Below, piece after piece: positions 6,355 through 63,714 of a stretch of DNA of 64,000 bases. Position numbers and translations under genes: made by a program. The stretch comes from Myxococcales bacterium (GTDB lineage Bacteria; Myxococcota_A; UBA9042; JABWCM01; BTVJ01). The stretch spans positions 27,190-91,189 of the forward strand of contig BTVJ01000028.1 of NCBI GenBank assembly GCA_045863395.1. The letters are read 5' to 3'. Numbering within the stretch: the stretch's first letter is position 1; each line of letters begins with the position of its first letter. The notes under the pieces were generated by a model. It was not told the origin of the DNA and did no database searches. It worked only from the letters and a program-made list of their open reading frames with translations.

Positions 6355-7254
6355 ATGTCCTTCCTCGACCGCGTGCGCTCTCTCCCCACCCTGGGCATCG
6401 GCGTCTCGACCGAGTACGGCGCCGCAGACGCCCGAGGCTCCCTGGACCCGCTGGCGCTCCGCCGCTCTCATCCCCGGTTTTGCGCCTTCCTGGAGGTCGG
6501 GGTCGAGACCGCCAAGGGCCTCGACCGCCACGCGCTCGCCTGGGCGCGCGCCGGCCTGCCGACCACGTACCACTTCCTCGACGTGAACCTGGACGAGCCA
6601 GAGGACCTGGACCCGGGCTGGCTCGGCGAGGTGCGCGACGTGGTGGGCACCCTGCGCCCCGCCTGGCTCTGTGGCGACGCCGGCCTGTGGCACTTCGGCC
6701 CCCGGGAGCGCGGGCACATGCTGCTCCTGCCGCCGGTGCTCACGCCGTCCCAGTCCGCGGCCATGGCGGACGGCGTCGCCGCGCTGCGGGACGCCGTGGG
6801 CCTGGAGGTGCTGCCGGAGAACCCGCCGGGCCAGGTCTTCCTCGGCGACTGGCACCTCCTCGACTTCTTCGCGGACCTGTGCGAGCGCGCCGACACGGGG
6901 ATGGTGCTCGACGCCGCCCACCTGGCCATCTTCCAGCGGGTGCGGGGCCTCGACGCCCTCGCCGGCTTCGACGGCTTCCCCCTGGAGCGCATCGTGGAGG
7001 TCCACGTGGCGGGAGCGAGTCTGGGTGAGGTCGTCGGATACTCCTTCATCGAGGACGACCACAGCCCTGCCGTGCTGCCCGAGACGTGGCGCATCTTGGA
7101 GCACGTCGCGCGCGCACCCAACCTGCGGGCGGTCGTCTTCGAGTGCGAGCGCAACCGCGTCTCCGAGGCGCTGCCCGGCTTCGAGCGCATCGCCGCGACG
7201 CTGGACGCTGCGGGCGCGTTCGCTGGCGCCCTGCAGGCATGGGAGACACCATGA
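6355..7254 (+). CDS. DUF692 family multinuclear non-heme iron oxidase (MNIO)
   Basis: LGIG N-terminus, LEV, H, LPENPP, LDAAHL, EVHVAG, DDH, VFECE pattern of the DUF692 TIM barrel. Confidence 0.88.
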   Translation: MSFLDRVRSLPTLGIGVSTEYGAADARGSLDPLALRRSHPRFCAFLEVGVETAKGLDRHALAWARAGLPTTYHFLDVNLDEPEDLDPGWLGEVRDVVGTLRPAWLCGDAGLWHFGPRERGHMLLLPPVLTPSQSAAMADGVAALRDAVGLEVLPENPPGQVFLGDWHLLDFFADLCERADTGMVLDAAHLAIFQRVRGLDALAGFDGFPLERIVEVHVAGASLGEVVGYSFIEDDHSPAVLPETWRILEHVARAPNLRAVVFECERNRVSEALPGFERIAATLDAAGAFAGALQAWETP

Positions 7255-8060
7255 GCCACACCGCGCTACAGCGCGCGCTCGTGCGCATGCTCTACGATCC
7301 GGCGCTGGTCGCCGCGGTCTACGCCGACCCGAGCTGCCTCGGCCTGGGCCCCGAAGAGCAGCGCTGGCTCACCGCCCAGGACCCCCGCGCCTACGCCACG
7401 GACCCTCACCGGCGGGGCCGGACCCTCGCGGCGCTCATCGAGGAGCTGCCGGCGGCCTCGGCCCTGGCCGCCCGCGCCGGGGGCGCGTCTGCGCTGGATG
7501 CCTTCTTCTCGTCGGCGCGCTTCCACGGGTGCATCGAGACGCGGGGCTCCCTCGCCGAGGCCTACGCCGAGCACCTGGCCGGGCTCACGGGCCGCGAGCG
7601 GCGCCTGGCCCCGGTGGCGAGCCTGGAGGGAGCCATCGCCCGGGCGCGGCGCGCCCGGCCCTCGGCGCGGGGCGCGGGCCTCCTCGTGACCGCGCCCGGC
7701 GTCGTCGCCCTGCGGCTCTGCGGAGGCACGTTGGCGCTGCGGCAGGCGGTCATCGCCGCCCTGTCCGCCCACGAAGACGGGCTGGTCGCCGCCGTGGTGG
7801 ACCGCTCCCTGCGGCTGCCGGCGCGGCGCCTCGACCCCGCTACGCCGGAGGAGCTGCTGGTGGAGCGCGCCGCGGACGGCGGCATTGGCGTCAGCGAGGG
7901 GTCCGCCGCCCTCGGGGAGCTGCTGCGCGCTTGCGCCAGCCCCGTTCCCCGCGACGTGGCCCTGGCGGAGGCCCGCCGCCACGGCCTCGAGCCCGGGGAG
8001 GACGCCGAGGTGGTCGACGGCCTGATCACCGACGGCCTGCTGCTGGAGGTGTCCCCATGA
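7251..8060 (+). CDS. MNIO partner protein (DUF2063/RRE-like)
   Basis: ATGA overlap with the DUF692 gene; helical N-terminus, 'VASLEGAIAR' motif, winged-helix-like C-terminus (LGELLRAC..VVDGLITDGLL). Confidence 0.65.
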   Translation: MSHTALQRALVRMLYDPALVAAVYADPSCLGLGPEEQRWLTAQDPRAYATDPHRRGRTLAALIEELPAASALAARAGGASALDAFFSSARFHGCIETRGSLAEAYAEHLAGLTGRERRLAPVASLEGAIARARRARPSARGAGLLVTAPGVVALRLCGGTLALRQAVIAALSAHEDGLVAAVVDRSLRLPARRLDPATPEELLVERAADGGIGVSEGSAALGELLRACASPVPRDVALAEARRHGLEPGEDAEVVDGLITDGLLLEVSP

Positions 8061-40932: not shown

Positions 40933-41023
40933 TGTAACCTGCGGGTGCCTCCCGAGCTTGCGCCCATTGCCGTAGAGTTCCGGTCTGGTCCGCGAAGATC
41001 CATCACCTGACGGTTACATCGCC
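40928..41023. repeat. Imperfect ~20-bp inverted repeat enclosing ~55 nt
   Basis: GGTGATGTAACCTGCGGGTG ... CACCTGACGGTTACATCGCC. Confidence 0.6.
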
Positions 41024-41188
41024 ATTCCCCTCCCCAGGTCGCTCAGGCATCCCCAAGCTCGCGAAATCGTGCCCGTCCCGCGGACCCGGATCCGTGCTCC
41101 CTCCAGACCCGCCGATTGGGGATAACGGGGTATACAACGCCCCATATCACTGTGCTAGGCTCCGCCGCGCCTGGGAGGAGGCGACGCA

Positions 41189-42514
41189 ATGAGCACCATC
41201 GGACGAGGCAGCGCAGGCGCTTGGGACAGCCCGGCCGGGCGCGTGCTGTCGGCCATCGGGCGGCGGCTCTTTGGAGCGCGCATCCCCACCTGGCCGCTTC
41301 TCACCCCCCCGCTCCCCATCGAGGACCTGCCCTGCCCTGCCACCCTGAGGTTCCCGCTGGGACGCAACAACGGCGTGTCGCTGCCACCCATCGCCAGGAA
41401 GGGGGGCGAGGTCGTCGTGGGCCAGTCGATCAGCGACGAGCCCGACGCCCCGGTGCGCCGGAGCCCGGTGAGCGGCACGGTCACGGGCATCGCCAACGCC
41501 CCGGACGTGCGCGGCGTGAAGGGGGGCCGCGTGGTGCTGGTCGAGCCCCGGGAGGCCGCGCCGTTCGAGCCGGTCACATCCAGCGCCGGCGCCGCCATCC
41601 GCGCCCGCCTGCTGGAGGCCGGCGTCATGGCCGGCGTCCGCCCGCGCCTCCTGGGGGAGCTGCTTGGGGTGGGGGACGTGGTCGTGCTGGCCACGGACAT
41701 GGAGCCCGGGGTGTCCGTCGCGCGCCAGCTCCTCCGCGACCGCATGGAGGACGCGCCGCTGGCCGCCCGCCTGCTCGCCCGGGTCACCGGCGGGGCGGCG
41801 GCCCTCGCCGTGCTGCCAGATCAAGAAGAGGTCCGGGCGGTCGCCGCACGCCACGACGTGGACGTGTTGGTCCTGACGCCGGTCTACCCCCACGCGCTGG
41901 AGCCCCTGGTCGGGGCGCGCACTGGCGCCACTGTGATCCCGCTCGAGGCCGCCCTCGCCGCCCTGGACGCGGTCCGGGAGGGCCGCCCCCAGGCACGCAA
42001 GGCGCTCACCGTGATCGCCCCCACGGGCTCCCGCAACGTGCGCGTCGCCATCGGCGCCCGCATCGGCGACGTGCTCGCCCACCTCGGGGTCGAGCCGCAG
42101 GAGCGGGACAAGCTCGTCGCAGGCGGCCCCATGCGCGGGTTTGCGCAGCACTCCCTGGATGGCGCCGTCGACGCGGGGCTCGACGCCCTGGTGCTGATCC
42201 CGGCGACCGAGGTCACCGAGTGGAGCGACGCCCCGTGCATCAACTGCGGGGTGTGCGTCGACGCGTGCCCGCAGGACATGCAGGTGCAGCTCATCGGGCG
42301 CTGCGCCGAGTTCGGGCTCTTCGACCGGGCCGGCGAGCTGGGCGCCCTGGACTGCGCCGAGTGCGGGATCTGTGCGGCGGTGTGTACGGCACGCCGGCCG
42401 CTCCTGCAGCTCATCCGGCTCGCGAAGCGGGAGCTGCAGGCGCAAGAAGAGGCCGCGTCCGCTGCCGGGGAGGCGGCGGCCGAGGCCGAGGACCGGAGGA
42501 CCGTCGCCGCGTGA
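41189..42514 (+). CDS. rnfC: RnfC-like subunit (flavin/NAD motifs degenerate, two 4Fe-4S motifs retained)
   Basis: SPVSGTV barrel-sandwich, IGARIGDVL SLBB, GGPMRG, CINCGVCVDACP, CAECGICAAVC; first gene of the rnf cluster. Confidence 0.85.
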   Translation: MSTIGRGSAGAWDSPAGRVLSAIGRRLFGARIPTWPLLTPPLPIEDLPCPATLRFPLGRNNGVSLPPIARKGGEVVVGQSISDEPDAPVRRSPVSGTVTGIANAPDVRGVKGGRVVLVEPREAAPFEPVTSSAGAAIRARLLEAGVMAGVRPRLLGELLGVGDVVVLATDMEPGVSVARQLLRDRMEDAPLAARLLARVTGGAAALAVLPDQEEVRAVAARHDVDVLVLTPVYPHALEPLVGARTGATVIPLEAALAALDAVREGRPQARKALTVIAPTGSRNVRVAIGARIGDVLAHLGVEPQERDKLVAGGPMRGFAQHSLDGAVDAGLDALVLIPATEVTEWSDAPCINCGVCVDACPQDMQVQLIGRCAEFGLFDRAGELGALDCAECGICAAVCTARRPLLQLIRLAKRELQAQEEAASAAGEAAAEAEDRRTVAA

Positions 42515-42568
42515 GGCCCCGAAGCCTCTCGCATGGGAGCACGACGTCCTCGTGAAGTGGGAGCTGCC

Positions 42569-43534
42569 ATGACCCCTCGCACCGTGACTCTGACCGTGGG
42601 CGCAGCGCCGCACTGGCGCACCCGCAACAGCGTCGCCCGCCTGCACCTGGCGATGATCCTGGCCCTGGCCCCCGCGGCGCTCCTCGGCGCGGTCGGCCAC
42701 GCCTTCGGGCCCAAGGCGGCGGCCCTGGACGGCGCCTTCGGGCCGCTCAACGCCATCATCCGCGAGCTGACCATCGCCATGGGCGTGGACTCGGCGGTGC
42801 TGTGGCTCTTCGGCATCCTGGGCACCGTCGCGCTGGCCATGGGCGTCGCGGTGCTCGTCGAGTACGGCTGCCAGGTGGCCATGCGCCAGCGCTACCACGC
42901 CATGGACGGCCACGGCGCGCTGATGGGCATGCTGCTCGCGCTCATGATGCCCCCGACCGTGCCCTGGTGGGTGCTGATCATCGGCGTGGCGGCGGCGATC
43001 TTCATCGGCAAGCAGCTCTACGGGGGGCTCGGCGGCTACCCGATGCACCCGGCGGTGGTCGGCTGGCTCGTCCTGCTCCTGTCCTTCCCCAACCACGTCT
43101 ACCCGGTGGGGGCGGCGAGCATCGCCGCGCCGTCGGAGCTGGCGGTGCTCGCCACCGCGGTCGGGGGCCTCGCGCTCTGGTGGCTCGGACACATCCGGCT
43201 GGAGATCCCCACCGGCGTGTTGGTCGCCGTGGTGCTCTTCTCGCTGCTGTTCGGGTCGAAGCTCCACGGGGGGGTCATCGACCAGCTCATGACCGGCCAC
43301 GTCATGCTGGCCGCCTTCTTCCTGGCGACGGACACGACGTCGTCGCCGTCGAACCGGGTCCCCATGCTGCTCTTCGGCTTCGGGGTGGGGACGATGATCA
43401 TGCTGATCCGCGCCTTCGGCATCTGGCCGGACGCGGCGCCCTTCGCCGTGATGCTGATGAACGCGATCTTCCCGCTGCTCGACCGCATCCGGCCCCAGCG
43501 AAAGACCCTCGTCCCGCGGGAGGTCAGCCCATGA
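42569..43534 (+). CDS. rnfD: RnfD subunit (short form)
   Basis: APH, GKQLYGGLGGYPMHPA, FFLATD..SSP, FAVMLMN..PLLD. Confidence 0.9.
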   Translation: MTPRTVTLTVGAAPHWRTRNSVARLHLAMILALAPAALLGAVGHAFGPKAAALDGAFGPLNAIIRELTIAMGVDSAVLWLFGILGTVALAMGVAVLVEYGCQVAMRQRYHAMDGHGALMGMLLALMMPPTVPWWVLIIGVAAAIFIGKQLYGGLGGYPMHPAVVGWLVLLLSFPNHVYPVGAASIAAPSELAVLATAVGGLALWWLGHIRLEIPTGVLVAVVLFSLLFGSKLHGGVIDQLMTGHVMLAAFFLATDTTSSPSNRVPMLLFGFGVGTMIMLIRAFGIWPDAAPFAVMLMNAIFPLLDRIRPQRKTLVPREVSP

Positions 43535-44154
43535 CGTCGCCGGTCCGCATGGTCCTCGTGCTCTCCCTCATCGCGCTGGTCAGCGGGGTCGCGCTCGGCG
43601 GCCTGTTCAGCGTGACCCGGGAGCAGGCCGAGAACAACGTGCTGAAGTTCAAGAAGATCCCCGCGGTGGTCGCCATCTCCGAGGCGGTCTCCGGTCCCCT
43701 GGACGACGCGGCCAAGGCGGCCCTGGAGCAGCAGCTCCTCGCGGAGAAGAGGACGGTGGACGTCGGCGGCAAGGACCCGCTCCTGTTCTTCGTGGTGTCG
43801 AAGGACGGCGCGCCGCACGCGGTCGCCCTGGAGGGCGTCGGGCAGGGGTTCGGCGGCGACGTGGGCGTCATGGCGGGCATCGCCATCGAGGGCGGTGGCC
43901 TGGTGGGCATCGGCGTGACGACCATGTCGGAGACCCCCGGCGTCGGCACCCGCGTCCTGGAGCCGACTTTTACTAAACAATTCGCTGGGATGCCCGCAGA
44001 CACAGTCGTCAAGGTGAAGAAGGACGGGGGCGCCGTGGATGCGGTCAGCGGGGCGACCATCACGAGCCGCGCCGTGGCTGCGGGCGTGCAAGGGGCACGA
44101 GAGACATTCGAGCAGCACCGGGAGGCGATCCTGGGTGCCGTGGGGGCGCCATGA
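43531..44154 (+). CDS. rnfG: RnfG subunit
   Basis: N-terminal TM helix, GFGG, ETPGVG, DAVSGATITS FMN-attachment motif. Confidence 0.93.
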   Translation: MTSPVRMVLVLSLIALVSGVALGGLFSVTREQAENNVLKFKKIPAVVAISEAVSGPLDDAAKAALEQQLLAEKRTVDVGGKDPLLFFVVSKDGAPHAVALEGVGQGFGGDVGVMAGIAIEGGGLVGIGVTTMSETPGVGTRVLEPTFTKQFAGMPADTVVKVKKDGGAVDAVSGATITSRAVAAGVQGARETFEQHREAILGAVGAP

Positions 44155-44744
44155 CAGCGCTGGCCAAGGAGTTCACGAAGGGCCTGTGGGCGGAGATCCC
44201 GCCCTTCCGCCTGGTCTTGGGCCTCTGCCCGGCACTGGCGGTCACCACCACGGCCGAGAACGGCCTCGGGATGGGGCTGTCCGCCACCTTCGTGCTGGTG
44301 GGAGCGAACGCGCTGGTCTCGGCCATGCGCAACATCATCCCGAACGAGGTGCGTGTCGCCTCGTACATCGTGATCATCGCGACCTTCGTCGTCGCGGTGG
44401 AGATGCTGACCAAGGCGTACTTCTTCCAGCTCTCGGAGAGCCTCGGCCTGTTCATCCCCCTCATCGTGGTGAACTGCATCATCCTCGGGCGCGCGGAGGC
44501 CTTCGCCCGCAAGAACGGAGTGGCCGCCGCCGTCGCCGACGGGCTCGGCATGGGGCTCGGCTTCACGCTGGCGCTCCTGGCGGTGGGCATCATCCGCGAG
44601 GTGCTCGGGGCCGGCAAGCTGGGCCTCTTCTTTGGTGACACGGTGCTGCTGGACACCCCCATCGGCTTCCTGCAGGAGGCTCCGGGGGCCTTCGTGACCC
44701 TGGGCCTGATGCTCGGGCTCATGAACGTCGTGGGACGGAAGTAG
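44151..44744 (+). CDS. rnfE: RnfE subunit
   Basis: LGLCPALAVT, FIPLIVVNCIILGRAE. Confidence 0.95.
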   Translation: MTALAKEFTKGLWAEIPPFRLVLGLCPALAVTTTAENGLGMGLSATFVLVGANALVSAMRNIIPNEVRVASYIVIIATFVVAVEMLTKAYFFQLSESLGLFIPLIVVNCIILGRAEAFARKNGVAAAVADGLGMGLGFTLALLAVGIIREVLGAGKLGLFFGDTVLLDTPIGFLQEAPGAFVTLGLMLGLMNVVGRK

Positions 44745-44755
44745 GAGGCCAGACG

Positions 44756-45331
44756 ATGGAAGGGACCCTCGCGCTCATCGTCAGCGCGATCTTCATCAAT
44801 AACATCCTGCTCGCCAAGTTCCTGGGCAACTGCCCCTTCCTCGGCGTCTCGAAGAAGATGGACACCGCCATCGGCATGGGCGCCGCGGTGGTGTTCGTGC
44901 TCACCGTGGCGGCGCTCTTCACCTGGGTGGTCGAGCACCTGCTGCTTGCCCCCCTCGGGCTCGGCTACATCCGCACGCTGGCGTTCATCCTCGTCATCGC
45001 GGCCCTGGTCCAGTTCGTCGAGCTGTTCCTGCGCAAGTCGATTCCGGCGCTCTACAAGTCGCTGGGCATCTTCCTGCCGCTGATCACCACCAACTGCGCG
45101 GTGCTCGGCGTGGCAATCCTGAATGTCCAAGAGGATCTGAGCCTGTTCCAGGCCCTGATCTTCTCGGCCTCGGCGGCGGCAGGCTTCGGCCTCGCCCTGG
45201 TGATCTTCGCCGGCATCCGCGAGCGCTTCGAGACCGCCCGCATCCCGAAGCCCCTGGAGGGCACGGGGATCGGCCTCGTGACGGCGGGCCTCCTGGCCCT
45301 GAGCTTCTACGCCTTCAAGGGCATGATCTGA
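44756..45331 (+). CDS. rnfA: RnfA subunit
   Basis: FLGNCPFLGVS, FLPLITTNCAVLG. Confidence 0.95.
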   Translation: MEGTLALIVSAIFINNILLAKFLGNCPFLGVSKKMDTAIGMGAAVVFVLTVAALFTWVVEHLLLAPLGLGYIRTLAFILVIAALVQFVELFLRKSIPALYKSLGIFLPLITTNCAVLGVAILNVQEDLSLFQALIFSASAAAGFGLALVIFAGIRERFETARIPKPLEGTGIGLVTAGLLALSFYAFKGMI

Positions 45332-45347
45332 TTCAAGGGAGGGTCCC

Positions 45348-47486
45348 ATGCTGATGCCTGCGTTCGTGATGCTGGGAATCGGGATGCTCTCCGCCGGGGT
45401 GCTCGCCTGGGCGGCCCGCGTGTTTCGCGTGGACGTGGACCCGCGCATCGGCGCCCTGGAGGACGCGCTGCCCGGCGCCAACTGCGGCGGCTGCGGCTAC
45501 ACGGGCTGCTCTGCCTGCGCCGAGGCGATCGTCAAGGGGGCCGCGCCGTTCGAGGCCTGCATCGTCGGTGGCTCGGAGACCGCCGCCAAGGTCGCCGCCG
45601 TCATGGGCGGCCAGGCGGGGTTCGCGGAGCCCAAGCTGGCGCTCCACGCATGCACCGGTGGTGACCGGGCCGAGCGCAAGTTCCACTACGAGGGGGCCCT
45701 CGACTGCCGCGCCATGGCCGAGCAGTTCGGCGGGGATCTCACCTGCCGCTACGGCTGCCTCGGCGGCGGCACCTGCGTCGCGGTCTGCCCCTTCGACGCG
45801 CTCCACATGGGCGACGACGGCCTGCCCGTGGTCAACCCCGGCAAGTGCACCGGCTGCGGAAACTGCGAGAAGGTGTGCCCCACCAAGGTGATCACCATCC
45901 AGACCATGACGGACCGGCTGCTCCACCACAACCACGAGGAGGAGTGTCTGTCTCCGTGCAAGCAGCTCTGCCCGGCGCAGATAGACATCTCCGGGTACAT
46001 CGATCACGCATCCAAGGGGCGGTATCGCGAGGCCATCGACCTGATCAAGGAGCGGAACCCCCTGCCGCTGATCTGCGGGCGCGTCTGCCCCGCGCCCTGC
46101 GAGGCGGGCTGCCGGAGGGCCGCGGTCGACGACGCCCCCGTCCACCACAACTACATCAAGCGCTTCGTCGCCGACTGGGACATGAACAACCCCAACCGGG
46201 TGAAGGACCCGGTGCTGCCCGACACGGGCAAGAACGTTGGCATCGTCGGCGGGGGCCCTTGCGGACTCTCCGCGGCCTACTATCTGCGGCGTCTGGGCCA
46301 TGCGGTGACCATCTACGACGCCAAGCCGGCGCTCGGCGGCATGCTCATGTATGGGATCCCGGAGTATCGCCTGCCGAAGAAGGTGCTCCAGTTCGAGATT
46401 CAGGAGATCCTGGACCTCGGCGTCGAGGCGAAGACGAATGTGGCGCTGGGGCGCGACCTCCACGTCGCGGAGCTGGAGAGCCGGCACGACGCGATCCTCA
46501 TGGCCATGGGCGCCTGGGACAACTCCTCCATGGGCGTCGATGGCGAGAGCCTCGACGGGGTCTGGAAGGGGACCGAGTTCCTGCAGAAGCGCGAGCTCGG
46601 AATCTCCGTGGATCTGGCTGGCAAGCGCGTCGCGGTGGTCGGCGGCGGAAACACCGCCATGGACGCCGCCCGCTCGGCGCTCCGCATGGGCGCCGCCGAG
46701 GTGCACCTGCTGTATCGCCGCACCCGCAAGGAGATGCCCGCCAACGCCGTCGAGATCGAGGCGGCGGAGCACGAGGGCGTGAGATACCAGTTCCTGGTGG
46801 CCCCGACCCGGCTGATCGGGGACGAGGGCGGGCGCCTGAAGCAGATCGAGTTCCTGCGCATGGAGCTGGGTGAGCCGGACTCTTCTGGGCGGCGGCGCCC
46901 GGTCCCCGTCGAGGGCTCCGAGACCACCATGGACCTGGACGTGGTCATCGCGGCCATCGGCCAGAAGCCGCTCCTCGACTGGTACACGGACGACCTGAAG
47001 GCACGCGGGCTCAAGATCACCAAGTGGAACACCATCGTCGCCAACGAGGAGACGCTGCAATCGGATGTGCCCGTGATCTTCACGGGCGGCGACCTGTTCA
47101 CGGGTCCCGCCTTGCTCATCGACGCCGTCGGTGCTGGCCGGCGGGCGGCACGGTCGATTCACCACTTCCTGCGCGGCGAGTCTCTGGCCCACCGGCCGGG
47201 CACCTTCAAGGGCCCGAAGAAGCTCCCGGAGTCTGCCCTCGTTCCGGTTGGGGGGGTGGTCGTCCTGCCCAAGATTCCACAGCCCGAGCTGCCGGTGGCC
47301 GAGCGGATCAAGACCTTCGAGGAGGTCGACCTGGTCCTGACGCCCGAGCTGATGGCGAAGGAGGCGGACCGCTGCATGCGCTGCGGGACGCTGTGCTACT
47401 TCACGGACGCCCAGCGCAAGCTGCACGTCGAGGGCAAGCCGCTGAAGGACCGGGTGGACGACCTCCTCCGGGTCTCCCCGATGTGA
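45348..47486 (+). CDS. rnfB: RnfB fused to a GltD/NfnL-like FAD/NAD(P) oxidoreductase
   Basis: LPGANCGGCG, ferredoxin motifs, then PCKQLCP, CGRVCPAPCE, GGGPCG, GIPEYRLP, GGGNTAMD, YRR, GGD. Confidence 0.92.
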   Translation: MLMPAFVMLGIGMLSAGVLAWAARVFRVDVDPRIGALEDALPGANCGGCGYTGCSACAEAIVKGAAPFEACIVGGSETAAKVAAVMGGQAGFAEPKLALHACTGGDRAERKFHYEGALDCRAMAEQFGGDLTCRYGCLGGGTCVAVCPFDALHMGDDGLPVVNPGKCTGCGNCEKVCPTKVITIQTMTDRLLHHNHEEECLSPCKQLCPAQIDISGYIDHASKGRYREAIDLIKERNPLPLICGRVCPAPCEAGCRRAAVDDAPVHHNYIKRFVADWDMNNPNRVKDPVLPDTGKNVGIVGGGPCGLSAAYYLRRLGHAVTIYDAKPALGGMLMYGIPEYRLPKKVLQFEIQEILDLGVEAKTNVALGRDLHVAELESRHDAILMAMGAWDNSSMGVDGESLDGVWKGTEFLQKRELGISVDLAGKRVAVVGGGNTAMDAARSALRMGAAEVHLLYRRTRKEMPANAVEIEAAEHEGVRYQFLVAPTRLIGDEGGRLKQIEFLRMELGEPDSSGRRRPVPVEGSETTMDLDVVIAAIGQKPLLDWYTDDLKARGLKITKWNTIVANEETLQSDVPVIFTGGDLFTGPALLIDAVGAGRRAARSIHHFLRGESLAHRPGTFKGPKKLPESALVPVGGVVVLPKIPQPELPVAERIKTFEEVDLVLTPELMAKEADRCMRCGTLCYFTDAQRKLHVEGKPLKDRVDDLLRVSPM

Positions 47487-47496
47487 GGGTGACCGA

Positions 47497-47985
47497 ATGC
47501 GGACCGGACACGTCGTCGAGGTGCGAGGAGACATGGCGCGGGTCTCCACCAGCAAGCAGGGCCCCTGCGAGGGGTGCAACGAGAAGGGCTCGTGCCAGCC
47601 GAGCTTCGGCTCGGCCGCCGCGCTGCTGGAGACCGTCGAGTGCCGCAATCTGGCCGGCGCGCGCCGGGGAGACACGGTCGAGATTGAGCTTCTGGGGCAC
47701 GCGGAGCTGCGGGTGAGCCTGCTGGTGTGGATCGTGCCCATCGTGGGGCTGATCGCGGGCGCGGCGGTCGGCGCCGGCGTGGCCGAGGCCGCCGGCGTAG
47801 GGCCCGACGTGGCCTCGCTGACCGGGGCTCTGCTCGGAGTCTCAGGGGCCTACGGGGCGCTGATGCGCTTGGACCGACGAGCTGCTACGGACGCGCGCCT
47901 CGTGCCCGCGGTCAAGCGGGTGCTGGAACGCGCGCACCCTCGGCACCCGGTGCGCCTGGTCCGCTGTGAAGACGGGAGAGCGTGA
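47497..47985 (+). CDS. rseC: RseC/MucC family protein
   Basis: G.VVE, CEGC....C, GARRGDTV, two TM helices. Confidence 0.85.
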   Translation: MRTGHVVEVRGDMARVSTSKQGPCEGCNEKGSCQPSFGSAAALLETVECRNLAGARRGDTVEIELLGHAELRVSLLVWIVPIVGLIAGAAVGAGVAEAAGVGPDVASLTGALLGVSGAYGALMRLDRRAATDARLVPAVKRVLERAHPRHPVRLVRCEDGRA

Positions 47986-49526
47986 TGGCGCTGCGAAGTC
48001 GTCGAGTCAAGGTCGGGTTGCTCCTCGCGGGCGTGCTGGGGCTGGTCGCCGCGGGCGCCCTCGGCGAGCTCATGAAGCCCAAGGCCGAGCCGGACACGGT
48101 CGTCGCGAGCCGCTTCGGCGACGTCAAATGGAACCACGAGCTGCACGCTCGCATGAAAGAGATTGGCACCTGCACCGTGTGCCACCACACGGAGCGGCCC
48201 GGTGAGACCAAGCCCCGGGCCTGCCACGACTGCCACAAGCGTCAGACCAACCCCGCGGTGCTGCTGGCGGACCTCCACATGAAGGTGGAGACCCCGAAAT
48301 ACAGTGGAGAGAACGGCCCGCCGCCCATGACGGCCTTCCACGGCAAGTGCGTCGGCTGCCACAAGGCGATGAAGCAGGGCCCCGTCGGGTGCAAGGACTG
48401 CCACGCCCAGACCTTCAAGGGCCAGCACGGCGTCGTGAGCTGGGACCACCAGGCCCACGCGCGGCGCATCGACATGGGCCCCGAGTTTCAGGGGAAGAAG
48501 GCCTGCGCGCGGTGCCACCACCAGGACAAGGAGGCGACCTGGGACGGAGAGTACCGCGCGTGCAGCGCCTGCCACAAGCCGGCAGAGCAGGCTGCGCTGA
48601 AGGTGGCGACGGGAATCAAGTCCCACGAGAAGCTCCTGCACGGAGACTGCAAGCGCTGCCACGTCGTCAAGAACCCGGAGACCGACGGCCGAGGCTGCAA
48701 GGACTGCCACAAGGGCTGGGTGGTGGACACGCAGGGTGGCGCAAGACCACCGGTGGAGCAGGCGGTGCACGCCCGCTGCATGGACTGTCACCGCAAGGAC
48801 TGGCCGGGCCTCGTCCCCGGGATGCCCGTCGGCTGCAACGAGTGTCACCGTCCAGACCAGTCGGTGGTGGCCGATCTCGAGGTCGGCCTCCTGCTGTGGG
48901 ACCACGACCGGCACGCGCGGGATCCGGGAGTCACCTGCTCGACCTGCCACCACACGGACAAGCCGGACCAGCCGCACATGGCGTGCAACAAGTGCCACGG
49001 GACGGGTCTCTACGACAACCCGAGCGTGGGCGAAGCGCTGCGCAAGCGGTGCCTGGAGTGTCACAAGGAGAAGGGCAACGGCCTGCTCGAGTGGGACCAG
49101 GTGGTGGCAAAGGGAGACGACCCCAAGGATCCAAAGAGCCTGACGTGGCACACCTACGAGGGCCCCGACGGGAAGCTCACGTGGAACCACCAGGAGCACG
49201 CCACGTCCTGGTCCTTCTCGTGCAGGAACTGCCACCACGGGATCCTGAAGGACGGAGACTCCTACGCGTCGGCCACCAAGGCGGGCGTGACGTGGACTGG
49301 CGAGGCGGCGAGGATCCAGAAGTGCACCGCGTGCCATGGAGAGACGGGCCCCGTCGCGGGCAGCGTCGCGGAGGGGACGAAGGCTCCCCCGCATGACGCG
49401 GCCTTCAAGAAGGTGTGTATGGAGTGCCACGTGCGCCTCGGGGGCGGCCCCCAGACCTGGGAGGCGTTCTTCGCGGTGGAGCCCCTCAAGCGAGGCTCGG
49501 AGGCGGGCGCAGGAGAGTCGAGATGA
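47985..49526 (+). CDS. Hexadecaheme class III (c3-type) cytochrome c, HmcA-like
   Basis: Signal peptide; 16 CxxCH motifs; repeated W(N/D)HxxH...CxxCHH c3 modules. Confidence 0.92.
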   Translation: MALRSRRVKVGLLLAGVLGLVAAGALGELMKPKAEPDTVVASRFGDVKWNHELHARMKEIGTCTVCHHTERPGETKPRACHDCHKRQTNPAVLLADLHMKVETPKYSGENGPPPMTAFHGKCVGCHKAMKQGPVGCKDCHAQTFKGQHGVVSWDHQAHARRIDMGPEFQGKKACARCHHQDKEATWDGEYRACSACHKPAEQAALKVATGIKSHEKLLHGDCKRCHVVKNPETDGRGCKDCHKGWVVDTQGGARPPVEQAVHARCMDCHRKDWPGLVPGMPVGCNECHRPDQSVVADLEVGLLLWDHDRHARDPGVTCSTCHHTDKPDQPHMACNKCHGTGLYDNPSVGEALRKRCLECHKEKGNGLLEWDQVVAKGDDPKDPKSLTWHTYEGPDGKLTWNHQEHATSWSFSCRNCHHGILKDGDSYASATKAGVTWTGEAARIQKCTACHGETGPVAGSVAEGTKAPPHDAAFKKVCMECHVRLGGGPQTWEAFFAVEPLKRGSEAGAGESR

Positions 49527-50356
49527 GCATGGACCCGACCAAGGCGATCCTCACGGACGTGACCAAGTGCATCGGGTGCGAGCGCTGCGTCGAGGCCTGC
49601 GTGCAGCAGAACAAGCTGCCTGACGAGATCCCCACCCACTACACGGCGGACGACGGCCTGTCCGCGCGGCGGTACACGTCCATCGTGCGGCTCAAAGTGA
49701 AGGAAGGGAAGTGGCGCAACGTGCGGCGTCAGTGCATGCACTGCGCGGAGCCCTCCTGCGCGTCGGCCTGCCTGGTCGGGGCCTTCACCAAGTCTCCCGA
49801 CGGCGCCGTCGTCTACGACGCGGACAAGTGCATCGGCTGCCGCTACTGCATGCTGGCGTGCCCGTTCATGATCCCGCGGTATGAGTACGACCAGACCCTG
49901 CCGCTCGTCCGCAAGTGCAAGATGGACGAGTCCTGCCGCGTCGAGGGGGGCATGCCCGCCTGCGTCTCGGCGTGCCCGACGGGGGCGACCATCTTCGGTC
50001 CCCGAGAGAAGCTGGTGGCAGAGGCGAAACGGCGCATCGCGGAGAAGCCGGACGTCTACATCGACCACGTCTACGGCGAGAAGGAGTTTGGCGGGACGTC
50101 GGTGATCTACGTGAGCGACGTGCCGCTGAACAAGACGCTGAAGGTCCCCACCGAGGAGGAGTTCCGCAAGCGCCGCGTGCGGGCCCTCGCGCAGAGCTCC
50201 ATCCCCAAGCTGCTCCACGGGTGGGTGTTGGTGACGCCGGTCCAGTTCGCGACGGTCGCCGCCGGCCTGACGGGGGCGTGGTTCCTGCGGCGGCGCTCCC
50301 GCCTGATGGCAGAGAAGGCGGCGGCAGACAAGGCCCCCACGCGTGACGAGGAGTGA
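49523..50356 (+). CDS. 4Fe-4S electron-transfer subunit (HmcB/HybA/FdnH family)
   Basis: CIGCERCVEAC, CMHCAEPSCASAC, CIGCRYCMLACP, PACVSACP, YGEKEFGGT, C-terminal TM helix. Confidence 0.92.
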   Translation: MSMDPTKAILTDVTKCIGCERCVEACVQQNKLPDEIPTHYTADDGLSARRYTSIVRLKVKEGKWRNVRRQCMHCAEPSCASACLVGAFTKSPDGAVVYDADKCIGCRYCMLACPFMIPRYEYDQTLPLVRKCKMDESCRVEGGMPACVSACPTGATIFGPREKLVAEAKRRIAEKPDVYIDHVYGEKEFGGTSVIYVSDVPLNKTLKVPTEEEFRKRRVRALAQSSIPKLLHGWVLVTPVQFATVAAGLTGAWFLRRRSRLMAEKAAADKAPTRDEE

Positions 50357-50357
50357 G

Positions 50358-52253
50358 ATGACCGGCAACTCCAAGGGGCTCAAGCGATTCAAGGACGTCC
50401 TGTGGGCGCTGGCCTTCGCCGGCCTGGCCGCGGGCATCGGCCGCTTCGTCTTCGGACTCGGCGCGTCCACCAACATGATGGACGCCCTGCCGTGGGGCTG
50501 GTGGAAGGTCTTCAACATGGTCGCCGGCGCAGCGCTCGCGACCAGCGGCTTCGTCGTCGCGGCGATCATCTACATCCTTCAGCTCGACAAGTACCGCGCC
50601 GTGGCGCGCCTGAGCGTCGTCGTGGGCTTCCTGGGCTACGGGTCGAGCCTCGTGGCGCTGCTCTTCGACATCGGGCTCCCGCACCGTGGCTGGCACCCCT
50701 TCTTCATGTGGAACCCCCACTCGTTCCTCTTCGAGGTCTTCTGGTGCGTGTCCATCTACTGGGGCGTCACGGCGGTGGAGCTGTTGCCCATCGTGACGGA
50801 GCGCTTCGGCCGCTTCCGCACGTTCGCCCACACGCTCCACGAGAAGATGCTGCCGTTCGTCGTGCTGGGCATCACGCTGTCGACCATGCACCACAGCTCG
50901 CTGGGGTCGCTGTTCATGGCGTCGCCGACGCGCCTCCACCCGCTGTGGCACAGCATGTGGATCCCGCCGCAGTTCTTCGTGAGCGCCATGGGCGCGGGCA
51001 TGGCCGCCATCGTGCTCCTGATGATCTTCATCTCGCAGGTGTACGGGCGGGAGCTGGACCGGAAGGCCGTCGAGGGGCTGTCCAAGGGCGCGGCCGTCAT
51101 GCTCGGGATCTTCCTGCTGCTGCGCGTCGCCGACCTGACCGTCAACGAGAAGTGGTCGTTCGTCTTCGGCGCCGACGTGACCTGGGAGAGCCGGGTCTTC
51201 TGGGTGGAGCTCGCGCTCCAGGCCGTCCTGCCCGTGGCCCTGCTGTCATCGAGGTGGGTGCGCCAGAACCTCATCGCGCTCGGGGTCACCTGCACGATGG
51301 CGCTGCTGGGGCTGATCATGCACCGGCTGGACACGGGCATCGTGGGCTACTTCTCGACGTCCGAGGCCATCTACATCCCCAACGTGAGCGAGCTGGTGCT
51401 GAGCTTCGGCGTGCTCGCCGCGGCGGCCCTGTTCTTCTTCCTGCTGGTCGAGCGGTTCCACGTCCTCGAGGTGGGCCACGACCACCCGCCACTGTGGACC
51501 CCGGAGGAGACCCGCGCCGTGTTCCGCGGTGAAGGGGCCCGTCGGGCGCTGCGCATCGTGCTCATCGCCATCCCCGTGACGGTGGTCGCGCTGCGCTCCC
51601 AGGCCACGGGCCCCTTCGAGCCCATCGTCGCGCCGGTGGAGGCCGCCGTCGTGGCGACGGACCCGATGCGCACGGTGCTGAGACTCGACGCCAACTCCAA
51701 CGGCATGTGGGTGGACTTCCCGCACAAGCTCCACCAGACGGAGCTGCAGAAGCTCTACGGGCTCGCCGAGAAGGAGACCTGCGTCAAGTGCCACCACCTC
51801 AACATCCCGAAGGACAACAACACGGTCTGCCGCCGCTGCCACGCGGACATGGAGGTCCCGACCCCCATGTTCCGCATGGAGAACCACAAGGATCGCTTCA
51901 AGACCGACGCCGACCGGGAGGCTTTCCTGGCAGTGAACCTCGGTGACAAGCGCGCGGCCTTCAAGGCGTGCGCCGGCTGCCACAAGGACAACATGGCCGG
52001 GCTGCTGACCTACGAGCCCAAGGGCTTCGACCACCAGGCGCCCGGGTACAAGGACGCGATGCACGGAGCCTGTCTGACCTGCCACCGCCTCCGTGAGCGC
52101 GAGAAGAACATCAAGCCGTCGGACCCCAAGAGCCCCGGCAACTGCCTCTTCTGCCACCGGGACTGGGCCGACGAGGGCCTGTTCACGGAGAAGGAGGCCA
52201 TCCGCCCGGCGACGGACGGAGCGCCGCCACCTCCAGCGAGCGGAACGCCGTAG
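50358..52253 (+). CDS. NrfD/HmcC/HybB membrane subunit fused to a pentaheme c3-type domain
   Basis: PWGWW, DIGLPHR, SFLFEV, LSTMHHSSLG, HPLW; C-terminal CVKCH, CRRCH, CAGCH, CLTCH, CLFCH. Confidence 0.9.
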   Translation: MTGNSKGLKRFKDVLWALAFAGLAAGIGRFVFGLGASTNMMDALPWGWWKVFNMVAGAALATSGFVVAAIIYILQLDKYRAVARLSVVVGFLGYGSSLVALLFDIGLPHRGWHPFFMWNPHSFLFEVFWCVSIYWGVTAVELLPIVTERFGRFRTFAHTLHEKMLPFVVLGITLSTMHHSSLGSLFMASPTRLHPLWHSMWIPPQFFVSAMGAGMAAIVLLMIFISQVYGRELDRKAVEGLSKGAAVMLGIFLLLRVADLTVNEKWSFVFGADVTWESRVFWVELALQAVLPVALLSSRWVRQNLIALGVTCTMALLGLIMHRLDTGIVGYFSTSEAIYIPNVSELVLSFGVLAAAALFFFLLVERFHVLEVGHDHPPLWTPEETRAVFRGEGARRALRIVLIAIPVTVVALRSQATGPFEPIVAPVEAAVVATDPMRTVLRLDANSNGMWVDFPHKLHQTELQKLYGLAEKETCVKCHHLNIPKDNNTVCRRCHADMEVPTPMFRMENHKDRFKTDADREAFLAVNLGDKRAAFKACAGCHKDNMAGLLTYEPKGFDHQAPGYKDAMHGACLTCHRLREREKNIKPSDPKSPGNCLFCHRDWADEGLFTEKEAIRPATDGAPPPPASGTP

Positions 52254-52283
52254 CATGACGAGGGGTCACATGACGAGGGGTCA
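52254..52283 (+). repeat. 15-bp direct tandem repeat CATGACGAGGGGTCA x2
   Basis: Copies at 52254-52268 and 52269-52283, starting immediately after the stop codon. Confidence 0.9.
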
Positions 52284-52344
52284 AGTATACTCATATCTCA
52301 TATCCTGGCGCGCCAGGATATGAGATATGAGTACACTTGACCCC
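52277..52344. repeat. 68-bp near-perfect palindrome, REP-like
   Basis: GGGGTCAAGTATACTCATATCTCATATCCTGGCG | CGCCAGGATATGAGATATGAGTACACTTGACCCC, one mismatch, no spacer. Confidence 0.9.
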
Positions 52345-52420
52345 CCTTGTTCCGCCCCGACCGAGTTCGGTAGAGTCCGCCCCGCCGAGCGCTCCTGCTC
52401 CCCACGCCCCGGGTGATCCC

Positions 52421-61707: not shown

Positions 61708-62631
61708 ATGACCCGCACCCTGCTCGACCTGTTCGCCAAGGCGATCACCCAGGCGCTGCTCGACCCGTTCGGGGAGCTCACCTTCGAGGAGGAGGTGGTC
61801 GCCTCCACGCGAAGGGCCGACATCGTCTTTCGGCCACGGCTGGAGCGCCCTGCCGTTGAGCCTGACCTGCTCGCCGGCCTCGTTGCGGGGCCCACGCTCA
61901 TCGAGCACTCCTCCCGCGGGCTGGACGTGGCTGCCGCGCGGCGGGCGCTGGCCGTCGCCGCGGTCCTCGGCGAGCGGCGGGGGGAGCCACCTTGGGCGGC
62001 CATCCTGGTCGCACCGAGCGTGTCAGCCGGCCTTGGCCGGGCCTTCGGTGCGACGCCGCAGGGTCCCGGCGTCTTTCGCCTGGCGCCGGCCCTGGGTATG
62101 CTCTGGATCGCGGCCAACGCCCTCCCCCGAACGCCGGAGTCATTGGGGCTTCGGCTCTTGGGCTCGGGCCGCGTCCGGCGCGAGGCGGTCCTGGAGCTGC
62201 GGGGCCGAGCGGCGGGCGACCCCTTGCGTGAGGCCGTCGCCGCCTTCGCCACGGAGCGCGGGTCCAAGGCGCGGCACCTGGTCGGTTCACTCTCCCCCGA
62301 GGAGGAGACGCTCATGGCACACGTCAGTCCCGAGTTCCTGGAGTGGAAGCGCGCCTTCGCGGCGGAGGCCGAGGCCCGGGGCCGCACCCTGGGTCACGAA
62401 GCCGGCGTTCGAGACGGGATGCAGGTTGGCAAGGCGGAGGAGGCGCAGGCGGCAGCCCTGCGCCTGCTGCGCCGTCGGTTCGGAGACGCCGCGTTCGCCG
62501 CGGAGCCGGCGCTGGAACTCGTCGCCGCTCTCGCTGACCCCACCGACGCCGTCGAGCTGGCATTCGATGCCGTGAGCCCCGCCGACTTCGCGGCTCGGCT
62601 CGCGGCGCTGGCTGAGGGGTGCGTCGGATAG
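61708..62631 (+). CDS. Rpn/YhgA-related PD-(D/E)XK-like protein, copy 1
   Basis: MTR..DLFAK, EV....RRADIVF, LIE, GVFRL, LPRTPESLGLRLLG, GxxxG repeats, LLRRRFG (DUF4351-like tail). Confidence 0.75.
   Translation: MTRTLLDLFAKAITQALLDPFGELTFEEEVVASTRRADIVFRPRLERPAVEPDLLAGLVAGPTLIEHSSRGLDVAAARRALAVAAVLGERRGEPPWAAILVAPSVSAGLGRAFGATPQGPGVFRLAPALGMLWIAANALPRTPESLGLRLLGSGRVRREAVLELRGRAAGDPLREAVAAFATERGSKARHLVGSLSPEEETLMAHVSPEFLEWKRAFAAEAEARGRTLGHEAGVRDGMQVGKAEEAQAAALRLLRRRFGDAAFAAEPALELVAALADPTDAVELAFDAVSPADFAARLAALAEGCVG
62314..62631 (+). CDS. Putative nested in-frame small protein (RpnS-like antitoxin), copy 1
   Basis: GAGGAGGAG followed 6 nt later by in-frame ATG at 62314. Confidence 0.55.
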   Translation: MAHVSPEFLEWKRAFAAEAEARGRTLGHEAGVRDGMQVGKAEEAQAAALRLLRRRFGDAAFAAEPALELVAALADPTDAVELAFDAVSPADFAARLAALAEGCVG

Positions 62632-62754
62632 AGGGAGACCGAGCGCGGAAGCGACGAGACACACATCGGGCGGCCACGGGGAAGTGCCGTCCCTCCGCAA
62701 CGCCCCCCGCACCCGGCACGACAGGGGCCCTCGCCCGAACCGCGCGAGGAGCCC

Positions 62755-63714
62755 ATGACCCGCACCCTGCTCGACCTGTTCGCCAAGGCGATCACCCAAG
62801 CGCTGCTCGACCCCTTCGGGGACCTCACCTTCGAGGAGGAGGTGGTCGCCCCCGCGCGGAGGGCCGACATCGTCTTTCGGCCGCGGCCGGAGCGCCCCGC
62901 CGTCGCCACCGACCTGCTCGCCGGCCTCTTGGCGGGACCCACGCTCATCGAGCACTGCTCGCGGGGGCTGGACGTGGCGGCCGTCCGGCGTGCGCTGGCC
63001 GTCGCCTCGGTCCTCGGCGAGAGGCGGGGGGAGGCAGCGTGGGCGGCCGTCCTGGTCGCGCCCGCGGTACCGGCCAGCCTCGGCCGGGCCTTCGGCGCGA
63101 CGGCGGAGTGTCCCGGCGTCTTTCGCCTGGCGCCGGCCCTGGGTATGCTCTGGATCGCGGCCAACGCCCTCCCCCGAACGCCGGAGTCATTGGGGCTTCG
63201 GCTCTTGGGCTCGGGCCGCGTCCGGCGCGAGGCGGTCCTGGAGCTGCGGGGCCGAGCGGCGGGCGACCCCTTGCGTGAGGCCGTCGCCGCCTTCGCCACG
63301 GAGCGCGGGTCCAAGGCGCGGCACCTGGTCGGTTCACTCTCCCCCGAGGAGGAGACGCTCATGGCACACGTCAGTCCCGAGTTCCTGGAGTGGAAGCGCG
63401 CCTTCGCGGCGGAGGCCGAGGCCCGGGGCCGCACCCTTGGGCACGAGGCCGGCGTTCGAGACGGGATGCAGGCCGGAGTGCAGGCCGGCATGCAGGCCGG
63501 CATGCAGGCCGGCAAGGCGGAGGAGGCGCGCGCAGCAGCCCTGCGCCTGCTCCGCCGCCGGTTCGGAGACGCAGCGTTCGTCGCGGAGCCGGCGCTGGAC
63601 CTCGTCTCCGCGCTCTCCGACCCCACCGACGCCGTCGAGCTGGCCTTCGATGCGGTGAGCCCCGCCGAATTTGCGGAGCGGCTCGCTGCGATGGCGCGCA
63701 AGCCCGCGGTGTAG
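62755..63714 (+). CDS. Rpn/YhgA-related PD-(D/E)XK-like protein, copy 2
   Basis: Tandem paralogue with the same upstream/RBS sequence and expanded G(M/V)QA repeats. Confidence 0.75.
   Translation: MTRTLLDLFAKAITQALLDPFGDLTFEEEVVAPARRADIVFRPRPERPAVATDLLAGLLAGPTLIEHCSRGLDVAAVRRALAVASVLGERRGEAAWAAVLVAPAVPASLGRAFGATAECPGVFRLAPALGMLWIAANALPRTPESLGLRLLGSGRVRREAVLELRGRAAGDPLREAVAAFATERGSKARHLVGSLSPEEETLMAHVSPEFLEWKRAFAAEAEARGRTLGHEAGVRDGMQAGVQAGMQAGMQAGKAEEARAAALRLLRRRFGDAAFVAEPALDLVSALSDPTDAVELAFDAVSPAEFAERLAAMARKPAV
63361..63714 (+). CDS. Putative nested in-frame small protein (RpnS-like antitoxin), copy 2
   Basis: GAGGAGGAG followed 6 nt later by in-frame ATG at 63361. Confidence 0.55.
   Translation: MAHVSPEFLEWKRAFAAEAEARGRTLGHEAGVRDGMQAGVQAGMQAGMQAGKAEEARAAALRLLRRRFGDAAFVAEPALDLVSALSDPTDAVELAFDAVSPAEFAERLAAMARKPAV

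Follow-up and report, generated by a model that had tools for sequence, protein, structure and literature searches.

Rnf Complexes and the Locus Studied

In canonical Rnf complexes electrons leave through RnfA and RnfE to RnfG and come back via the flavin mononucleotide (FMN) of RnfD, riboflavin and RnfC. The Rnf2 variant, typified by that of Desulfobacula toluolica Tol2, has an RnfB of ~700 amino acids (aa) with nucleotide-binding sites and an RnfC without NADH domain (PMC5109826). Rnf2 belongs to the core genome of Desulfobacteraceae and is abundantly formed, its partner being stated as unknown (PMC5109826, PMC11887813), while Qrc lacks an obvious donor in the same bacteria (PMC11887813). 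Here we analyze a ten-gene cluster in which an Rnf2-type complex is followed by a 16-heme cytochrome, a 4Fe-4S subunit and an NrfD protein fused to a 5-heme domain. It lies in a stretch of 64,000 nucleotides, called the window, of contig BTVJ01000028.1 from a Myxococcales bacterium. We propose, with a probability of roughly 0.4, that the two parts form an ion-translocating NADPH:menaquinone oxidoreductase. Gene content, synteny and the motifs lost or kept are read directly in the sequences; the electron path is deduced from them.

The window cluster shares with Tol2-type Rnf2 the rnfCDGEAB order, the large RnfB (50–54% identity), an RnfC without NADH domain, an RnfD without Thr motif and a neighboring c3-type cytochrome. 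It differs in that the RnfD linker is deleted outright, in the position and size of the cytochrome (16 hemes downstream, not 4–8 hemes upstream), in the addition of the 4Fe-4S subunit, NrfD::5-heme and rseC, and in its presence in hosts with and without dsrA. Canonical Rnf (7ZC6, 9ERI, 8AHX) has the same six subunits, RnfA/E/G core, ion-pumping residues and RnfD fold, but the window RnfC has no FMN/NAD site, RnfD has no covalent FMN site and RnfB carries its own flavoprotein. Hmc/Nhc and HybAB/QrcCD likewise combine a c3-type multiheme protein, a 4Fe-4S subunit and a ten-transmembrane-helix NrfD with HybB-type residues; the window module scores below their family cut-offs, lacks HmcDEF and a twin-arginine translocation (Tat) leader, and has an NrfD-fused heme domain and the D58N change.

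A full-text literature search, with most subscription papers outside its coverage (the original Tol2 paper included), returned no description of rnf joined to such a module or of the RnfD deletion, and the accessible parts of PMC12174285, PMC5736913 and bioRxiv 2024.05.23.595608 do not describe the arrangement. The original prediction had allowed that this exact arrangement might already be characterized; the Rnf half alone was found published, as Rnf2. The RnfD linker deletion, the intact RnfA/E cluster ligands and RnfG flavin site, the module synteny and the NrfD placement appear to be new, whereas the Rnf2/Tol2-type half is known but uncharacterized.

Remodeling of the Rnf Half

The best 120 of 149 matches of an RnfD search were compared, of which 88 form a clade at 46–100% identity and 32 score lower. 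The periplasmic linker with the FMN-bearing Thr is gone throughout the clade, where the segment measures 31 aa (87 proteins) or 29 aa (one protein) against 56–96 aa in the other 32. The FMN-contacting GE motif is lost as well. All 88 retain the riboflavin Asp, and in 87 of them His takes the place of the riboflavin Asn. An AlphaFold2 model (predicted local distance difference test, pLDDT, 85.4) keeps the RnfD/NqrB fold when aligned to 9eri_D (Z 28.8, root mean square deviation 6.6 Å, 274 residues aligned); a single-sequence model of pLDDT 50 was set aside. The AlphaFold2 model shares more aligned residues with NqrB than with RnfD. A clade-specific insertion (window 42700–42800, residues ~46–75), modeled as an extra helix, is a possible docking site for the cytochrome.

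In a tree of 48 RnfD rows the short-linker proteins occupy one side of a branch with support 100. Their sister position to nine Desulfobacterales-type rows has a moderate SH-like approximate likelihood ratio value of 89, unstarred, under a midpoint root. Desulfobacterales Rnf2 (L015–L023) and Desulfovibrio-type proteins (P0089, P0090) have the linker with a YPL-like sequence in place of ATPL and therefore the Thr loss extends beyond the short-linker clade; all eight Desulfobacterales Rnf2 loci that reach rnfC encode an RnfD without the Thr motif. This loss may bear on the failed ferredoxin:NAD+ vesicle assays in D. alaskensis (PMC4841214). Replacement of the Thr by a flavinylated Ser is unlikely: the nearly invariant S184 aligns with the Ser of a downstream GSLGE and is not preceded by a constant GA. 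A loose flavinylated-Ser pattern matched 3 of the 88 clade segments.

RnfC scores 147 bits against TIGR01945 (cut-off 246) and the Pfam search gave no Complex1_51K match. The host also carries a separate canonical Rnf on contig C81, used as internal control for the motif comparison. The motifs GLGGAxFP, NGxECEP and YPQG are present in the canonical RnfC and are lost in the window protein and in 21/21 related rows, all of which retain the cluster motifs. In the canonical locus (L067, 3044–12302) a 1423-aa pyruvate:ferredoxin oxidoreductase-like gene is inserted between rnfB and rnfC. The remodeled Rnf of the original prediction corresponds to the published Tol2-type Rnf2; the RnfD deletion, the absence of a Tat signal and the D58N change had escaped that prediction.

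The best solved relatives of the RnfB extension are Nfn/Stn-type NADP enzymes (9bov, 9n5u, 8oh5, 5jca). RnfB retains the motifs GGGNTA and YRRT, which we take to be of NADP type. The cytoplasmic NAD(P)(H) site of the original prediction thus looks to be of NADP(H) type. Electron bifurcation at RnfB is not supported, the cluster having no NfnA/NfnS-type partner. The outward half is unaltered at the positions compared: RnfA/E keep the four [2Fe-2S] Cys and R67/E115, and RnfG T176 (SGAT) is invariant in 22/22 rows (residue roles in PMC11889175, PMC9588780).

These features bear on a closed circuit in which electrons would move between NADP(H) at RnfB and a carrier at the RnfC clusters, ferredoxin or another, with the FMN of RnfG reaching straight into an uncapped RnfD pocket and the cytochrome module serving as an optional third port. 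The conserved RnfC [4Fe-4S] motifs, RnfD Asp (88/88) and RnfD fold, together with RnfC-RnfD fusions in five distinct loci (L001, L004, L005, L026/28, L031), speak for it, as do a precedent model (PMC11334425) and a non-NAD partner proposed at RnfC (PMC5109826). It is judged unlikely: the riboflavin Asn is His in 87/88, the GE motif is gone, the linker deletion coincides with the presence of the module, and NqrA shows that such a subunit can persist as a scaffold (PMC11889175).

The Multiheme Cytochrome, 4Fe-4S and NrfD Module

In an alignment of 60 rows the 16-heme cytochrome shows 16 invariant His beyond those of its CxxCH motifs, from which all its hemes are predicted to be bis-His ligated and arranged in domains of 4+6+3+3; it would act as a catalytically silent wire. 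A single N-terminal hydrophobic helix predicts N-terminal anchoring. Its match to HmcA reaches 77 bits (cut-off 400) over residues 78–245 only, profile matches to solved HmcA are patchy, and its first domain is equally close to the small c3 cytochromes of Rnf2 and to HmcA-like ones, with bit scores tied near 50. The 4Fe-4S subunit scores 240 bits against HmcB (cut-off 420) and NrfD 217 bits against HmcC (cut-off 550). Searches of PDB by phmmer gave no match for NrfD and only a c7 for the cytochrome, so that profile searches were needed. The module called Hmc-like in the original prediction is therefore no true Hmc, its three subunits falling below the HmcA/B/C cut-offs and HmcDEF being missing; in having a cytochrome, HmcB and HmcC without HmcEF it resembles Nhc.

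The match of the 4Fe-4S subunit to HmcB leaves out profile positions 1–35, the Tat leader region. None of its Rnf-linked or sister homologs has a Tat leader, which the classical HmcB-like proteins aligned with them possess. The subunit keeps, in CIGCRYC, the Tyr equivalent to QrcC Y113. The 19 NrfD proteins compared were grouped by identity, three of them lying on contigs too short to show linkage to rnf. All 19 keep HybB Y99, D109, S129, E133, Y141, E148, E155, H184 and R329 (residue roles in PMC8076601, PMC13059093).

Rnf-linked NrfD proteins fall into a single clade (support 100/99), whose sister group consists of NrfD::6-heme proteins encoded with HmcE/TmcC- and DsrK/HmcF-like genes. Under the midpoint root used, the simplest history would be that an Hmc/DsrMK-like module exchanged its cytoplasm-facing arm for Rnf2. 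Loci L042, L046, L047 and L075 combine DsrK/HmcF-like and HmcE-like genes with a signal-less 4Fe-4S subunit and NrfD::6-heme, a compact Hmc-like complex without HmcA. The host has a second signal-less 4Fe-4S and NrfD::3-heme pair (L069 7335–11571, contig C17), flanked by membrane-anchored GcvH-like genes.

Synteny and Distribution

An rnfB search gave 24 loci: 14 at ≥67% identity, nine of Desulfobacterales type and one distant. The cytochrome gene comes next in 13 of the 14 close loci, and the contig of the 14th ends after rseC. An NrfD search gave 24 metagenome loci, 11 of them at ≥49% over the module; four are distinct and informative, four too short and three near-duplicates. The four informative ones all have rnf upstream, as do two further new loci, both complete, from a cytochrome search. 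Both modules are thus kept in 20/20 informative loci (the window and 19 other distinct loci), and the conserved synteny for which the original prediction called is found. In seven of the eight Desulfobacterales Rnf2 loci that reach rnfC, this gene is preceded by one for a small anchored cytochrome of c3 type; the contig of the eighth starts within rnfC.

Host labels of the rnfB loci include SAR324, Planctomycetaceae, Phycisphaerales, Sandaracinaceae, Gemmatimonadetes and Acidobacteria. Few genomes carry the cluster. In the host's phylum it is present in 2 of 301 (the host itself and a duplicate of a counted locus), and in three other phyla it is found in 1/301, 5/88 and 2/12 genomes, the seed genome being counted each time. 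Its patchy spread suggests transfer and, as the flanks are not conserved, the cluster is a cassette. A link to the upstream acyl-CoA dehydrogenase was rejected on the same grounds.

The position of rseC varies. Two loci have it co-directional with the other genes, 11 have it in antisense orientation between the modules and five have it upstream and divergent; in three truncated ones it is not seen. In eight inspected loci with antisense rseC, its stop overlaps or abuts the rnfB stop in five and a TACAAT box precedes its ATG by 6–7 nucleotides in four, possibly indicating a leaderless transcript and a non-contiguous operon. This invites the view that Rnf2 and a Nhc-like cytochrome:quinone oxidoreductase are two separate complexes of a co-regulated cassette, with no direct electron exchange; stand-alone FeS/HybB-like/cytochrome modules are known (bioRxiv 2023.11.02.564894) and dhcA is dispensable (PMC4215793). 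We consider it very unlikely given that both modules are kept in 20/20 informative loci of unrelated hosts, with rnfB directly adjoining the cytochrome gene in seven, that one RNA-library contig spans rnfB-rseC-cytochrome and that complex prediction lends weak support to contact between the modules (see below).

The system is not restricted to sulfate reducers, as dsrA was above cut-off in three of five relatives and gave no match in the host, whose genome is 97% complete. In three of these five relatives, whose genome completeness is not given, no further RnfD/NqrB gene turned up. Among the host genes are three of the heme-copper oxidase family, menB, two apbE and complex I-family genes, and MqnA of the futalosine route was not found in the host search. 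Host contigs C4 (110817–116106) and C13 (25298–29257) have very large multiheme open reading frames (ORFs; 23, 26 and 24 CxxCH) that may encode periplasmic or outer partners.

Proposed Electron Path

In the NADPH:menaquinone oxidoreductase reading, NADPH would be oxidized at the flavin adenine dinucleotide (FAD) of RnfB and electrons would pass outward, together with Na+, via the clusters of RnfB and the [2Fe-2S] center of RnfA/E. From RnfG-FMN they would proceed to the anchored 16-heme cytochrome, the 4Fe-4S subunit and finally menaquinone at a periplasm-side site of NrfD, the module replacing the normal return leg of Rnf. The drop between NADPH and menaquinone is ~250 mV with textbook potentials. 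If NrfD draws protons from the cytoplasm like QrcD, the net yield would be ~1 charge per electron. With 21 hemes in total, the module would also offer a side exit to periplasmic partners. This path is favored because the outward half is intact, two flavins of the return half are gone and the heme/quinone module is always adjacent. An open-circuit Rnf, in which heme wire and NrfD replace the RnfD/RnfC return leg, is put forward tentatively; it would be an ion-translocating NAD(P)H:quinone oxidoreductase of separate design.

Contact between the two parts was addressed by complex prediction. RnfD, RnfG and cytochrome residues 1–145 scored 0.52 against 0.00 for the best control and 0.00 when RnfD was replaced, with contact agreement of at least 66% and partner pLDDT of at least 76. 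Of 157 solved pairs 116 attain the mark applied, as do 2 of 215 mismatched ones; 18 of these solved pairs and both mismatches lie at ≤0.60. The prediction thus gives weak support to an RnfD/RnfG-cytochrome contact, low passes being often wrong. The link between the modules foreseen in the original prediction is supported by synteny, by the flavin-site losses in RnfC and RnfD and, weakly, by this result; the chain itself stays a deduction.

A precedent is the RnfG to MmcA to methanophenazine model of Methanosarcina acetivorans (PMC4023990), an NAD-independent Rnf for which discharge into a membrane carrier by way of RnfG and a multiheme cytochrome is likewise proposed, with the differences that its donor is ferredoxin and that it has no NrfD. 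The overall reaction predicted here resembles that of Na+-NQR, NAD(P)H to quinone via an A/E/G-type core, but Na+-NQR returns electrons via NqrB FMN and riboflavin whereas the predicted exit here is a periplasmic heme wire with NrfD. In an NQR/RNF-like two-subunit system an RnfD-like protein is fused to an NqrF-type NAD domain (PMC8238504), while the window has an unfused RnfD and a full rnf set.

Several observations weigh against the NADPH-to-menaquinone path. The return leg may still conduct electrons, since both RnfC clusters and the riboflavin Asp of RnfD are retained. Transfer from an RnfG at −129 mV to typical c3 hemes would be uphill. This is the midpoint potential reported for RnfG in M. 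acetivorans (PMC4023990). A Thr-less RnfD-like protein is predicted to admit an RnfG-type FMN directly into its pocket (PMC11334425), and dhcA of D. alaskensis, co-transcribed with rnf, is nevertheless dispensable (PMC4215793, PMC4841214). The loci with an antisense rseC separating rnfB from the cytochrome gene are L002, L003, L006, L009–L014, L035 and L089. In L030/L031 the cytochrome gene follows rnfA directly and the only rnfB is a 43%-identical paralog, divergent upstream; in L031 (1–7486) this paralog is an rnfB::GltD with a degenerate second nucleotide motif. The periplasmic location of the 4Fe-4S subunit is unexplained because it has no Tat leader and the cluster no Tat partner: no Tat signal is conserved on the cytochrome, NrfD or flanking genes, and tailed subunits without a signal are normally exported together with a Tat partner (bioRxiv 2023.11.02.564894). 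Finally, NrfD has Asn in 19/19 at the position of HybB D58/QrcD D70, where D70A/H abolishes Qrc and HybB D58A loses menaquinone reduction and keeps H2 evolution (PMC13059093). A Lys three residues before N58 may compensate. As this Asp is needed for quinone reduction in HybB/QrcD, electrons may flow in either direction.

The same wiring could run in reverse, menaquinol or low-potential periplasmic hemes reducing NADP+ at the expense of the ion gradient. The bis-His hemes predicted in the cytochrome agree with this, c3-type bis-His hemes being usually of low potential, and for NADH oxidation the host is already equipped with genes of the complex I family. Moreover, D58N mirrors the HybB mutant left with the quinol-oxidizing direction only (PMC13059093) and Rnf is reversible (PMC5109826). 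Such a reversal nonetheless seems rather improbable, since the remaining NrfD channel and quinone-site residues match HybB, and the abundant constitutive Rnf2 and the lack of an obvious Qrc donor in Desulfobacteraceae fit catabolic outward flow (PMC11887813).

Cluster Organization and Transcription

The cluster consists of ten plus-strand ORFs called in the window at 41189–52253 (Table 1), with families confirmed by NCBIfam and Pfam and a GC content equal to that of the window. Genes overlap by 4–14 bp or are 10–16 bp apart, except for 54 bp between rnfC and rnfD. The tight co-directional packing, the gene families and the heme counts (16 and 5 CxxCH) of the original prediction all hold. So does its statement that no hmcDEF, hydrogenase or molybdoenzyme gene lies within the cluster; eight molybdopterin-family matches and one NiFe large subunit are found elsewhere in the genome.

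Table 1. Features of the rnf-cytochrome-NrfD cluster (window coordinates).
Feature	Position	Strand	Description
rnfC	41189–42514	+	without FMN/NADH motifs; both [4Fe-4S] motifs kept
rnfD	42569–43534	+	321 aa; periplasmic FMN-Thr linker missing
rnfG	43531–44154	+	periplasmic FMN shuttle; PF04205; SGAT threonine intact
rnfE	44151–44744	+	above TIGR01948 cut-off; [2Fe-2S] Cys and R67/E115 ion pair
rnfA	44756–45331	+	above TIGR01943 cut-off; both [2Fe-2S] Cys
rnfB::GltD	45348–47486	+	712 aa; fusion to GltD/NfnB-type FAD-NAD(P)H domain ("large RnfB" of Rnf2)
rseC	47497–47985	+	PF04246, E 1.7e-21
cytochrome	47982–49526	+	16 CxxCH; PF02085; c3/c7-type
4Fe-4S subunit	49523–50356	+	HybA/HmcB-like 4x[4Fe-4S]; 16 Cys; C-tail
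NrfD::cytochrome	50343–52253	+	HybB/HmcC-type NrfD membrane protein; C-terminal 5-heme domain (5 CxxCH)
upstream intergenic region	40933–41188	+	likely promoter side of cluster; weak hint from RNA-library contigs
long palindrome	52277–52345	.	just 3' of last gene; member of genome-wide repeat family

A promoter scan gave no sigma70-like promoter inside the cluster, and the seven terminator-like sites are no excess over shuffled sequences (4.0 ± 2.1), the four on the plus strand all lying within coding sequence. An internal promoter or terminator splitting the modules in the window was thus rejected, nothing being above chance. Five RNA-library runs, of the six with the stretch (three studies), were compared with three DNA runs. 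RNA contigs start at 41149, 41179, 41180 and 41193, just 5' of rnfC, and the fifth run has a mere 13 bp break at 41057–41070; all three DNA runs span the gap. The RNA contig 45085–48166 spans rnfB-rseC-cytochrome and the following one, 48181–52265, the last three genes. This is a weak hint at co-transcription, as contigs cannot prove a single transcript. The single operon of the original prediction is consistent with the window and does not hold generally, rseC being antisense between the modules in 11 loci.

The 3' transcript end could not be read from contigs because one DNA contig likewise ends at 52266. The palindrome, in a region that folds at −62.9 kcal/mol (52251–52350), may end the cluster transcript. 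It is ~69 bp long and matches 38 sites in the genome by blastn, many of them with changes paired across the stem, as in a family of repetitive extragenic palindromic-like repeats. A 15-bp tandem duplication immediately before it is missing from one DNA run. Elsewhere in the window, a DUF692/MbnB-family gene and a partner ORF (6355–8060) lie beside a YceI protein and an XylR-type regulator, and two tandem near-identical ORFs without Pfam match are found at 61708–63714.

Significance

A cytochrome-to-quinone module beside Rnf2, together with the RnfD flavin-loop deletion, offers a direct and testable answer to the questions of the Rnf2 partner and of the Qrc donor. If the proposed path is correct, the pool of periplasmic cytochrome c3 would receive electrons from Rnf2 via RnfG, Rnf2 would be the missing Qrc donor, and the signal-less 4Fe-4S subunit may need an undescribed export route. 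The Rnf core would then have been turned into a further type of NAD(P)H:quinone pump, with a patchy spread over unrelated lineages.

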